In this document: in pieces, positions 13,447-58,215 of the stretch
Layout of the letters: every line of letters starts with the position of its first letter
How positions within the stretch are numbered: position 1 is the first letter of the stretch
NCBI GenBank assembly: GCA_028867755.1
Contig: JAGWFT010000001.1
Location: 676,727 to 740,726 of the forward strand
Direction of reading: 5' to 3'
Length of the DNA stretch: 64,000 nt
From: Nitrososphaerota archaeon
Lineage (GTDB): Archaea > Thermoproteota > Nitrososphaeria > Nitrososphaerales > Nitrosopumilaceae
Notes under the pieces: generated by a model
Database searches by the model: none
Told to the model about the DNA's origin: nothing
Seen by the model: only the letters and a program-made list of their open reading frames with translations
Made by a program: the position numbers and the translations under genes

Positions 13447-13545
13447 TGCAGAGGGAGGGATTTGAACCCCCGAACCCCTAAAGGAAAGGATTTCCCATGC
13501 CAGATCTTGAGTCCTTCTCGGTTGGCCGGGCTTCGATACCTCTGC
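13447..13545 (-). tRNA. tRNA-Leu(CAA) with 14-nt intron at 37/38 (13492-13505)
   Basis: Acceptor GCAGAGG/CCTCTGC, stem AAGGA/TCCTT, long variable arm, BHB core CUCA/UGGG; mature length 85 nt. Confidence 0.95.
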
Positions 13546-23756: not shown

Positions 23757-24398
23757 ATGCATAATGTTGTCAAGCTACTTGGAAAAGTAGCCCAGAGATA
23801 CTACCCAAGCAGAATGTTGTCATTTGAGCCTGCACATATCTTCAAGGTTCTCCAAGTCATACATGATAACGTAAAAGCAAGCAGATCTCTTTTAATAGAA
23901 GAAATAGGACTAGGAGAAGGCTCTGTCAAGACACTTGTAAAACATCTGAAGATGAACGAACTTATCATAACATCAAAGGCAGGTATGACACTGACAAACA
24001 AAGGAAAAACCTTGTTTTCAAAACTAGGCGAAGTTATATCTGCAGAAACCAACATTCACGAATGTTCAATCACTGTGGGCAAGTTTAATCACGCAATACT
24101 TGTCAAAGGACTTGCAAAAGACGTGGGAAGTGGAATTGAACAAAGAGACGCTGCAGTAAGAATAGGTGCGCTTGGAGCAACCACACTTGTATTTCGCGAT
24201 GACAAACTCTTCACGTCAGACAAAAGCCATGATATTCCAATTAAAGATCGAAAACTGACATCAATAATAATTGAAAAGCTAGGGCCTGAAAATGGAGACG
24301 TAGTAATTATTGCAAGTGCAGAAAATAAAAAAATTGCTGATCTGGCTGCAAAAAGGGCAGCATTAGAAACAATATCAAACCATGAAAAGCATTCTTGA
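23757..24398 (+). CDS. Winged-helix plus DUF4443-like protein
   Basis: GLGEGSVKTLVKHL HTH; GIEQRDAAVRIGALGATTL. Confidence 0.75.
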   Translation: MHNVVKLLGKVAQRYYPSRMLSFEPAHIFKVLQVIHDNVKASRSLLIEEIGLGEGSVKTLVKHLKMNELIITSKAGMTLTNKGKTLFSKLGEVISAETNIHECSITVGKFNHAILVKGLAKDVGSGIEQRDAAVRIGALGATTLVFRDDKLFTSDKSHDIPIKDRKLTSIIIEKLGPENGDVVIIASAENKKIADLAAKRAALETISNHEKHS

Positions 24399-24453
24399 TT
24401 TGTGTAACCACGATTCAATAGTGTCTAATATAGAAAATGGATTGCACAAAAGA

Positions 24454-24460
24454 TTTAAAA
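24454..24460 (+). promoter_or_regulatory. TATA box for the riboswitch-containing crcB leader
   Basis: A-rich BRE-like run followed by TTTAAAA, about 24 nt before aptamer P1. Confidence 0.55.
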
Positions 24461-24483
24461 CATTGCACTATGTAATCATGTAT

Positions 24484-24548
24484 GGCTATGACATTAGCCT
24501 TGGAATGAGTTTCCTAAACCGCTCCTGAAAGGTGCTGATAATGTCTAC
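24484..24548 (+). ncRNA. Fluoride riboswitch (crcB motif) aptamer
   Basis: P1 GGCTA/TAGCC; pseudoknot GACAT (24490-24494)/ATGTC (24541-24545); AAACCGC linker; P2; 3' TGATA..CTAC; upstream of crcB. Confidence 0.85.
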
Positions 24549-24707
24549 CTAATGAAAATTAATAGGTAGATAAATGAACAAAAAAATCAAAAACAAAAAG
24601 GGAGCGGGAAAGTATCCTAGCGTATCCACTAATACTTGCAATGATCATCTTGATGATATTATGAATTTACAGATAGTAAATTTAAGTAACAATACGCCTA
24701 GGCAGAT

Positions 24708-25097
24708 ATGAAAATGATAGAGCTTGCATTTCTTGCTGCTGGTGGGCTGGGAGGAACTTTTCTAAGATATGGTATTACAAAGTCTCCCTTACTTCTTGGC
24801 GCATTGCCTCTAAATGTATTAATTGCAAATGTTGTAGGAAGTTTCATTCTTGGTATTTTTGCTGTACTTTCACAACAGTGGAATCTTGATGAAAAGTATA
24901 CGTTATTGATGGCAATTGGATTCTGTGGAGGATTGACTACAATGTCCTCATTTGCATTAGAGTCATCCAATCTGATTGATAATAAGCAATATGTCCTTGT
25001 AGCAGTAAATGTACTAACTAATGTTGGTTTGTCATTAGGAGCAATATTTTGTGGTAAATCTCTAGTAAGCGCAATTCTAGGTGCTGAATTTAAATGA
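24708..25097 (+). CDS. crcB: Fluoride channel Fluc/CrcB
   Basis: GGLGGTFLRY, LIANVVGSFILG, GFCGGLTTMSSF signature. Confidence 0.95.
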   Translation: MKMIELAFLAAGGLGGTFLRYGITKSPLLLGALPLNVLIANVVGSFILGIFAVLSQQWNLDEKYTLLMAIGFCGGLTTMSSFALESSNLIDNKQYVLVAVNVLTNVGLSLGAIFCGKSLVSAILGAEFK

Positions 25098-25408
25098 GAA
25101 CTATGAAGATGTGGTCGCTTGTAATTAGGATAAAGAAAAATGATAATGCCAAGGGAAAACGTGTGCATGTTCTAGTGCTAGACATACTAAAGAAAGGACA
25201 AATCTCTGGTGCTACTGTGTGGACAGGAGTTGAGGGATATGGCAAGAGAGGAAAGTCTAATGTCATGATAGAAGGTTTTTCAGTTAACATGCCTATGGTA
25301 ATTGAGGTAATTGATGAATTGTCAAAACTAGAAAAGATACTTCCAGAGGTAAAGGAGTTAATTGGTGATAATGGGCTGATTACATTACATGAAGTTGGAG
25401 TAGTATGA
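25094..25408 (+). CDS. DUF190 (PII-like) protein
   Basis: GATVWTGVEGYG, MPMVIEVID; ATGA overlap with crcB. Confidence 0.88.
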   Translation: MRTMKMWSLVIRIKKNDNAKGKRVHVLVLDILKKGQISGATVWTGVEGYGKRGKSNVMIEGFSVNMPMVIEVIDELSKLEKILPEVKELIGDNGLITLHEVGVV

Positions 25409-25491: not shown

Positions 25492-26172
25492 TTGAATAGT
25501 TACCAGTGCCATCAGGTCCTAGGTCTACAGGATGGTGCATCGATGAAAGAGGTAAAGGCAGCATACCGAAACTTGGCACTCAAACATCATCCGGACAAGA
25601 ATAATACGGATCAGGATGGAAAGAAATTCAAGATAATATCTGAAGCTTATCAGACTCTCCGATCTGATTATAAGAAAAACATTGGTACAAGTTCAAACCA
25701 AGAAAATTATCAGGAAAAAAACTCAAACAAAAAATATGATTTTGGCTCAAAAAGACACTCATGGGGTGCAAGAGATTCTGACAAGACCCCGCAAGAAGAC
25801 TGGACTAGATATACAAAATATGCAGAAGGTGCTTACCAAAACTTTTGGAAACAATACGAGCAGGTATTCTGGGATTATTATGAAAAAGTAAAATCTGACA
25901 CAAAGACAGATTCAGAACCAATCCAAGTAGAGCAAGAAGTTCCAATATCCGTACGGGTTGACCCAGAAAGATGTATAGCTTGTTGCAGTTGTGAGACCAT
26001 AGCTCCAAAGGTGTTTCATGTGGAAAAAAATGTACGAGTAAACCCCAAATCCAAAGTCATAAACGAAGAAGGTGCAAAATCCCAGAAGATTCTTGATGCA
26101 GCACATACATGTCCTACAAAGGCAATCAGTGTAACGCACAAAGAAACACAACAAAGACTGTATCCATACTAA
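25492..26172 (+). CDS. DnaJ-ferredoxin fusion protein
   Basis: J domain with HPD (LKHHPDKN); C-terminal CIACCSC...CP ferredoxin motif. Confidence 0.9.
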   Translation: MNSYQCHQVLGLQDGASMKEVKAAYRNLALKHHPDKNNTDQDGKKFKIISEAYQTLRSDYKKNIGTSSNQENYQEKNSNKKYDFGSKRHSWGARDSDKTPQEDWTRYTKYAEGAYQNFWKQYEQVFWDYYEKVKSDTKTDSEPIQVEQEVPISVRVDPERCIACCSCETIAPKVFHVEKNVRVNPKSKVINEEGAKSQKILDAAHTCPTKAISVTHKETQQRLYPY

Positions 26173-58140: not shown

Positions 58141-58215
58141 GGACCCGTAGCACAGCTTGGATAGTGCGGTCGCTTGCGGAGCGACAGGTCGTGGGTTCGA
58201 GTCCCCCCGGGCCCG
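58141..58215 (+). tRNA. tRNA-Arg(GCG)
   Basis: D stem GCAC/GTGC, anticodon stem GTCGC/GCGAC with loop TTGCGGA, T loop TTCGAGT; two stem mismatches. Confidence 0.92.

Follow-up and report, generated by a model that had tools for sequence, protein, structure and literature searches.

We consider it likely that positions 24446-24576 (+) of the 64,000-nt stretch analysed here (the window), from an acidophilic ammonia-oxidising archaeon of the genus Nitrosotalea, hold a complete fluoride-riboswitch cassette with a translational hairpin platform, from which a relay leads to crcB and a DUF190 gene, and that crcB has a basal promoter besides. The core of the original prediction, namely a fluoride aptamer, a hairpin predicted to occlude the start region and a leader coupled to crcB-DUF190, gained support from the comparison with related copies. 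In the proposed mechanism, when fluoride is absent, the aptamer tail UGUCUACCUA would pair with UAGGUAGAUA in a 10-bp hairpin ending 1 nt before the AUG at 24574, and this hairpin would bury a weak AGGU, so that ribosomes would be blocked from starting. When fluoride and Mg2+ are present, the GACAU/AUGUC pseudoknot would lock four of the ten arm bases into the aptamer, the hairpin would be lost, and the AUG with its A-rich tract would become accessible. The frame opened in this way would be a 45-codon leftover, and ribosomes finishing it would reinitiate on crcB and then on DUF190. In addition, crcB is probably expressed at a basal, switch-independent level from a TATA-like box 27 nt before its AUG.

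The locus bears on fluoride handling by obligate acidophiles. In acidic surroundings, fluoride crosses into the cell as HF and builds up in the near-neutral cytoplasm, as weak acids do. The mechanisms of archaeal riboswitches are almost unexplored, one natural switch having been validated and its mechanism presumed. Together with about 54 relatives, the locus offers a mutation-ready model of a putative archaeal translational platform, in which a pseudoknot is set against a hairpin adjacent to the AUG. The series of relay frames also provides natural material on whether termination-reinitiation carries a riboswitch signal.

Aptamer and promoter

A search with the Rfam fluoride model, suggested as a check in the original prediction, placed a fluoride riboswitch aptamer (RF01734) at 24475-24554 (+). 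In the window search with cmscan, the match extended over the full model length and scored 38.0 bits against a gathering score of 34 (E-value 5.9e-7), and a covariance-model search of the whole 1.64-Mb genome returned this match only (E-value 3.6e-9). On the forward strand, the aptamer comprises P1 (GGCUA 24484-24488 / UAGCC 24495-24499), a fully complementary pseudoknot (GACAU 24490-24494 / AUGUC 24541-24545), a hairpin inserted between P1 and P2 (GGAA 24502-24505 / UUCC 24511-24514) and P2 (24521-24525 / 24531-24535), which has one U-U mismatch. The minimum free energy fold of the 109-nt leader in ViennaRNA has exactly the named helices (-26.7 kcal/mol, z -4.6). All the features on which the original prediction was built, i.e., P1, the pseudoknot, the extra hairpin, a TATA-like box, the stem before the AUG, the AUG itself and a TTTAAG further downstream, are present at the coordinates given in this text.

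In kind, this aptamer is nothing out of the ordinary: it belongs to a known class, the crcB motif (Weinberg 2010; Baker 2012), for which a structure from T. petrophila is available (Ren 2012; all as cited in PMC5473149). On the one hand, it has the P1 and P2 of this class, the pseudoknot in which the P1 loop pairs with the 3' tail, and the conserved set of unpaired nucleotides, and it is associated with the same cargos, crcB and Na+/H+ exchangers. On the other hand, it differs from the class consensus in the extra covarying hairpin between P1 and P2, in the pseudoknot, which is GACAU/AUGUC here and GGAGU/ACUCC in the consensus, and in its archaeal promoter context, with the transcript start predicted at P1.

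We collected 61 distinct related copies, and 54 of them were used in formal alignments and helix counts. The seven copies outside the alignments (loci L005, L012, L017 with two copies, L026, L030 and L043; genomes G010, G011, G017, G026 and G032) are flagged as unpublished and enter only the tallies of all ~61 copies, e.g., those of promoter, frame overlaps, first genes, A content and Shine-Dalgarno (SD) match, and the conclusions are independent of them. For the pairing percentages, a covariance-model alignment of the 54 distinct copies (A2) was used in place of a MAFFT alignment (A1), which had put the 3' arm out of place in about ten of the divergent rows; two long-loop copies (L015 and L075:5112) were shortened in A2.

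In A2, which is fitted to the structure and so biased towards it, and whose copies are paralogues and relatives from mutually related genomes and not independent samples, P1 was 99.3% paired with two pairs altered on both sides, and the pseudoknot was 99.6% paired, one of its pairs being AU in 43 copies, GC in five and GU in six. All four pairs of the inserted hairpin showed changes on both sides among the 54 relatives, and P2 was 82% paired, with three pairs altered on both sides and a recurrently mismatched third pair. As a control, the 3' partners were slid by one to three columns, and pairing fell from 91.6% to 23-46%. The unpaired core nucleotides AUG, AACCG, CUGAU and UAC are retained, and changes are confined to the helices and compensated. 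Because the helices stay paired while both sides change, the departures of the aptamer from the consensus, read at the outset as paired substitutions, are real compensations. In the same way, we regard the GGAA/UUCC hairpin, listed at first simply as extra, as a genuine element of this lineage, judging from the covariation of its four pairs.

Considering that the first genes after the switch include 11 with a cupredoxin domain (PF00127) and 10 of an unannotated 390-aa family, it may be asked whether this aptamer variant senses a ligand other than fluoride. We consider this extremely improbable, since the same variant stands directly before crcB, or relays to crcB, in about 19 copies, its Rfam score lies above the cut-off, the unpaired core is kept and the helix changes are compensated.

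Upstream of the fluoride aptamer, a putative archaeal promoter at 24446-24461 (+) combines a BRE-like, A-rich ACAAAAG (24446-24452) with a TATA-like TTTAAAA (24454-24460), which starts 30 nt 5' of P1. Of the 61 copies, most have a TATA-like box (CTTAAAAG or TTTAAAA), whose first base usually lies 29-31 nt before P1; where this pattern missed it, inspection showed TTATAAAT in the same region. The TATA box originally proposed ahead of P1 therefore recurs at similar spacing among the relatives. Throughout the genome, TTTAA and related motifs peak 28-33 nt 5' of the start codons of long ORFs, with the maximum for TTTAA at 30 nt, which is a signature of leaderless genes. Since the distance between box and P1 matches this genome-wide TATA spacing of leaderless starts, transcription is expected to start at ~24482-24484, at or just before P1.

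The hairpin before the start codon

The expression-platform hairpin of the predicted OFF state lies at 24542-24572 (+) and was assigned from its fold energy and from covariation in relatives. Its 5' arm UGUCUACCUA (24542-24551) pairs with the 3' arm UAGGUAGAUA (24563-24572) in 10 bp, one of them G-U. The 5' arm takes in four of the five pseudoknot bases, so that hairpin and pseudoknot are mutually exclusive folds, and a single nucleotide separates the helix from the AUG at 24574-24576. Folded alone, the hairpin reaches -11.9 kcal/mol (z -4.4), and none of 200 shuffled sequences folded as well. The stem described in the original prediction, with its four bases shared with the pseudoknot, is thus confirmed.

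A contiguous helix of at least 7 bp between the aptamer tail and a downstream segment was found in all 54 copies of the alignment set. At the same place, 51 of the 54 distinct copies have a helix of at least 8 bp, against 2.5% per copy in shuffled downstream sequence. The original prediction had been staked on the hairpin recurring in relatives; it is kept there and it covaries. In A2, the platform helix was 91.1% paired with four pairs changed on both sides, and the position shared with the pseudoknot was UA in 47 copies versus CG in four. In a three-way change, copies with a GGCAU/AUGCC pseudoknot (e.g., L008 and L061) bear ...GGC in the 3' arm. In all, the relatives have 27 distinct arm pairs, and divergent copies have wholly different arms, such as GUCUACUCA/UGAGUAGAC and GUCUCCAG/CUGGAGAC. 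The gap between helix and AUG is 1-2 nt in 39 of the 54 copies, and 49 fall within -2 to +5 nt; the helix takes in the AUG itself in five copies. The comparison of relatives accordingly supports the idea that the 3' strand of the pseudoknot may alternatively be captured by a hairpin at the start region.

These copies do not all weigh the same. The core 8 bp of the hairpin barely varies within the genus, the 5' arm is also constrained by the aptamer, and much of the apparent conservation could reflect recent duplication of the cassette. Because the within-genus core is nearly invariant, the 5' arm is bound to the aptamer and the copies are paralogous, the divergent copies weigh most, and they are, together with the fixed geometry relative to the AUG, the strongest evidence for the platform. 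As judged from this evidence, the platform fits a predicted translational ON switch, and we infer its dependence on fluoride and its direction of switching.

A bacterial-type terminator or attenuator was considered and ruled out by the absence of a U-tract and of terminator-like sites: none of the latter was found after the hairpin, and no run of four or more T occurs within 24540-24710. The switch could also act on transcription or RNA stability in another way, with the hairpin as a pause, processing or decay signal. In favour of this, no fluoride switch of an archaeon is known to have been dissected mechanistically, that of Thermococcus kodakarensis being described as only "presumably" translational (PMC8241225), and a discrete 86-nt riboswitch RNA has been reported in T. 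kodakarensis (PMC4247193). However, neither a U-tract nor a terminator-like site was found after the hairpin, and in every copy the RNA beyond it is rich in A; in 49 of 54 copies, those with a gap of -2 to +5 nt, the helix sits against the AUG; and the maintained stop/start overlaps described below make sense only under translational control. We therefore regard an action on transcription or stability as very unlikely and prefer a platform acting on translation.

How the hairpin would hinder initiation was considered in terms of the SD sequence. The SD-like AGGU (24564-24567) lies inside the 3' arm, starts 10 nt before the AUG and gives a 4-nt match to the anti-SD ...GGAUCACCUCCU. This anti-SD is the 16S 3' end of four congeners; a 16S rRNA gene was not found in the 112-contig assembly of the host (G000), whose estimated completeness is 99.95%. 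Across the genome, where start calls are crude, SD fragments are enriched about twofold at that position, and an anti-SD match of at least 5 nt precedes 11% of long ORFs, the figure for a control zone being 4%. Of 60 copies, 39 match over at least 4 nt; the base preceding GGU is variable, and the motif overall measures 3-5 nt. Also, the GGU is forced by its pairing with the ACC of the aptamer tail. A masked SD is plausible in this situation, yet inseparable from the pairing constraint. Because AGGU is weak, its preceding base is variable and the genome makes modest use of SD sequences, it is safer to speak of a predicted occlusion of the AUG region. Of the SD-like motif originally said to be buried by the stem, its location in the 3' arm stands, and its weight is reduced to a weak 4-nt match; a strong SD was downgraded, as the match to the anti-SD is limited to AGGU.

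The sequence after the gated AUG is unusual in composition. Codons 2-10 (24577-24603 here) have an A content of 74% in the window and a median of 67% across the window and 60 related copies, versus 33% for the long ORFs of the genome, and only 0.2% of these ORFs reach 63% A in the same codons. Since these codons are extremely A-rich, unrelated downstream proteins share an MNTKIKNK-like N-terminus and all start MN(T/K)K(I/N)K.... The A-rich tract may keep the initiation region unstructured, or it may merely travel with the copied cassette.

The short frame and the route to crcB

The gated AUG opens a 45-codon ORF at 24574-24711 (+), taken from the ORF list, which has no Pfam match. Its UGA stop (24709-24711) overlaps the AUG of crcB (24708-24710) in AUGA 24708-24711. 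The crcB gene (24708-25097, +) encodes a Fluc fluoride channel of 129 aa (Pfam PF02537, E 8.2e-23), and its stop overlaps in turn the AUG at 25094 (AUGA 25094-25097) of the DUF190 gene (25094-25408, +; 104 aa; Pfam PF02641, E 3.6e-21). Short frame, crcB and DUF190 gene thus form a chain with overlaps at both junctions.

The origin of the short frame can be read from locus L035. When aligned to L035, positions 24477-24640 fall on the switch and on the opening ~65 nt of a 389-aa gene; from 24679 onward, the sequence falls on the region upstream of crcB, 1.2 kb further on in that locus. About 1.2 kb, including the 389-aa gene, is missing here in comparison with L035-type loci. Because its two halves align to L035 segments 1.2 kb apart, we take the 45-codon frame to be a chimaeric leftover of a deleted ~390-aa gene. 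A 35%-identical paralogue of the lost gene is present elsewhere in the genome (C24:787789-788847, outside the window). A conserved leader peptide was rejected as an explanation of the frame, considering that it has no Pfam match, that the sequence past the A-rich start is unconserved and that the frame is a deletion leftover.

The coupling of such frames to crcB recurs. Fourteen loci carry a short frame after the switch and ahead of crcB; at 13 of them, its stop and the start of crcB overlap (as AUGA, once as GUGA), and the 14th has a 1-nt gap. The frames are 16, 18, 20, 31, 35, 45 and 66 codons long and come from different parent genes; at least one other, that of L051, is a leftover of a different gene, for a cupredoxin-type protein. 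The chance of the permitted register is one in three per length, with stop-free length left uncounted. Seven lengths in one register are unlikely by chance, which argues for selection for translational coupling, and such selection argues in turn that the switch acts on translation. The overlapping stops suggest a termination-reinitiation relay to crcB, and a pattern of this kind would be expected only if translation of the short frame matters. Of the claim that a leader is translated ahead of crcB-DUF190, the coupled stop and start hold up across loci; a dedicated leader peptide does not.

A second promoter may lie within the relay frame. TTTAAG (24681-24686), 27 nt 5' of the crcB AUG, is part of a conserved TATA-like element at 24673-24690 (+), whose spacing is kept in related crcB loci. 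Nine related crcB loci have this element at this distance. Seven of the nine lack a switch within 1.5 kb; in the other two, the switch lies 1.3 kb upstream, ahead of the 389-aa gene. Loci with the switch right before crcB and a 20-codon frame have a different, non-TATA sequence at the place of the element. In eight of ten loci, the element lies within an open, coupled frame (...NVVNLSN...SQV*), and it could there be coding sequence ("NVVNLSN"). In the other two, the frame is closed and the element is retained with its spacing, so that its conservation at these loci is not driven by coding. On balance, TTTAAG is predicted to be the TATA box of a leaderless or near-leaderless crcB transcript, a reading that we favour with some reserve. 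Because TTTAAG is conserved even at loci without a nearby switch, crcB is probably not under the control of the switch alone.

These observations bear on a further explanation, in which the switch is a stranded relic: aptamer and hairpin would be intact, and crcB-DUF190 would be transcribed essentially from the box at 24681, leaderless and independent of fluoride. In favour of this, the original cargo has been deleted, as the ~1.2 kb missing relative to L035-type loci indicate, and the TATA-like element stands at a fixed 27 nt in nine loci, seven of them switchless within 1.5 kb, and persists where the leader frame is closed. In T. kodakarensis too, crcB has its own start site 3' of a switch-controlled gene (PMC4247193). 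On the other hand, the frame has stayed open over 45 codons in DNA of 38% GC and ends exactly in AUGA, as in 12 other loci, the aptamer still exceeds the Rfam cut-off, all pairs of the hairpin are intact, and the switch is the only fluoride switch in the genome. The element itself, being located in an open coupled frame in eight of ten loci, could be coding. We consider a relic of this kind unlikely. The original prediction had named expression of crcB solely from an internal promoter near 24681, with no response to fluoride, as an outcome that would speak against it; basal expression from there is probable, and the evidence for the relay from the switch stands beside it.

Relatives, cargos and known systems

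RF01734 matches were present in 25 of 34 sampled genomes of the genus Nitrosotalea and in 33 of 151 sampled genomes of the class. Within the class sample, they occurred in 7/8 Nitrosotalea genomes, in 7/11 of a second genus and in 1/36 of a third genus of the same family. Up to seven and eight copies were found on single contigs, where they lie within ~20 kb (G030:C37:54369-73392, loci L072 and L073; G033:C57:26771-47715, loci L074 and L075). The cargos on these multi-switch contigs include a winged-helix regulator (77 aa), a DUF6659 protein, a 190-aa unknown protein and many short frames. We searched the literature on Nitrosotalea with fluoride and on Thaumarchaeota with riboswitch and crcB, and found no description of fluoride switches in Nitrosotalea.

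The first gene after the switch varies. Most often it encodes an N-terminally anchored protein of 390 aa (L024:1600-2772 and nine other relatives); this family has no Pfam family, and its Atlas neighbours are only hypothetical Nitrososphaerota proteins. In 11 of the 61 copies, the switch precedes membrane-anchored proteins with a plastocyanin/azurin-type copper domain (PF00127; L009:1600-2799, L020:1602-2639, L074:1051-2250). A cupredoxin is an unusual cargo for the fluoride-switch class, here in organisms whose energy metabolism relies on copper proteins. In other relatives, the cassette stands directly before crcB or a Na+/H+ exchanger (PF00999), both classic cargos of fluoride switches. Three loci from other families of the order, outside Nitrosotalea (L002, L003 and L008), have a similar switch and hairpin before a 368-aa exchanger of this type (PF00999).

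We tentatively propose that a portable fluoride cassette, made of promoter, aptamer, anti-pseudoknot hairpin, AUG and A-rich start, has been copied before many unrelated genes, those of membrane-anchored cupredoxins among them, and repeatedly rewired to crcB by deletions, which survived only with an overlapping stop; this proposal may well prove wrong. If it is true, riboswitch-gated termination-reinitiation would be a regular mode of output in archaea, and fluoride stress would be tied to the copper-protein electron chain of acidophilic ammonia oxidisers.

In comparison with known systems, the platform type is known from bacteria; less usual are the clear definition of a putative translational platform in an archaeon, the apparent use of leftover frames as a relay, and how large the fluoride regulon of this genus is and which cargos it has. 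Translational coupling in archaeal operons, by termination-reinitiation at overlapping stop and start codons, has reportedly been described by Huber et al. in 2019. The AUGA overlaps between short frame and crcB and between crcB and DUF190 resemble such operons. Unlike in those operons, the upstream partner here is a non-conserved leftover, whose only apparent role would be the delivery of ribosomes from a riboswitch-gated AUG to the cargo.

Bacterial translational fluoride riboswitches are represented by those of Pseudomonas syringae eriC-F and Burkholderia pseudomallei, which served as translational controls in PMC12667848. Like these, the present system is a predicted ON switch, with a hairpin 3' of the aptamer that would cover the ribosome-binding region and with no terminator. 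In contrast to them, it has a weak SD (3-5 nt), a helix abutting the AUG, an A-rich coding start and, at many loci, a relay frame.

Among archaea, 79 fluoride riboswitches in Euryarchaeota, six in Crenarchaeota and one in Thaumarchaeota were counted as of 2017 (PMC5473149). One of the archaeal switches, that of T. kodakarensis, is described as validated. The original prediction had called riboswitch regulation in archaea poorly demonstrated and thereby overstated the novelty, the fluoride class being well known there and one member validated (PMC5473149, PMC8241225). The T. kodakarensis switch responds to fluoride and lies upstream of TK0513 (Speed 2018, as cited in PMC8241225), and its control is presumed to be translational. 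In that organism, transcription of crcB (TK0514) begins at a site of its own and is not chiefly governed by the switch (PMC4247193). The two systems are alike in that both are archaeal, that the ancestral switch stands before a gene other than crcB, that the downstream crcB has a promoter of its own, which is apparent here, and that control of translation is presumed. They differ in that the present switch belongs to the phylum Nitrososphaerota, that its platform is defined from ~54 copies, and that its cargo has been deleted and its output runs through an overlapping short frame; this copy is known from sequence alone.

The surroundings of the switch in the window are as follows. The gene just upstream (23757-24398, +), whose 213-aa product combines a CggR-type DNA-binding domain at the N-terminus with DUF4443, has no apparent link to the switch. 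A gene at 25492-26172 (+) encodes a 226-aa protein with a DnaJ J-domain and a C-terminal single-cluster 4Fe-4S ferredoxin domain. Two tRNA genes are located at 13447-13545 (-) and 58141-58215 (+), and the anticodon arm of the former is interrupted by 22 extra nt, probably an intron.
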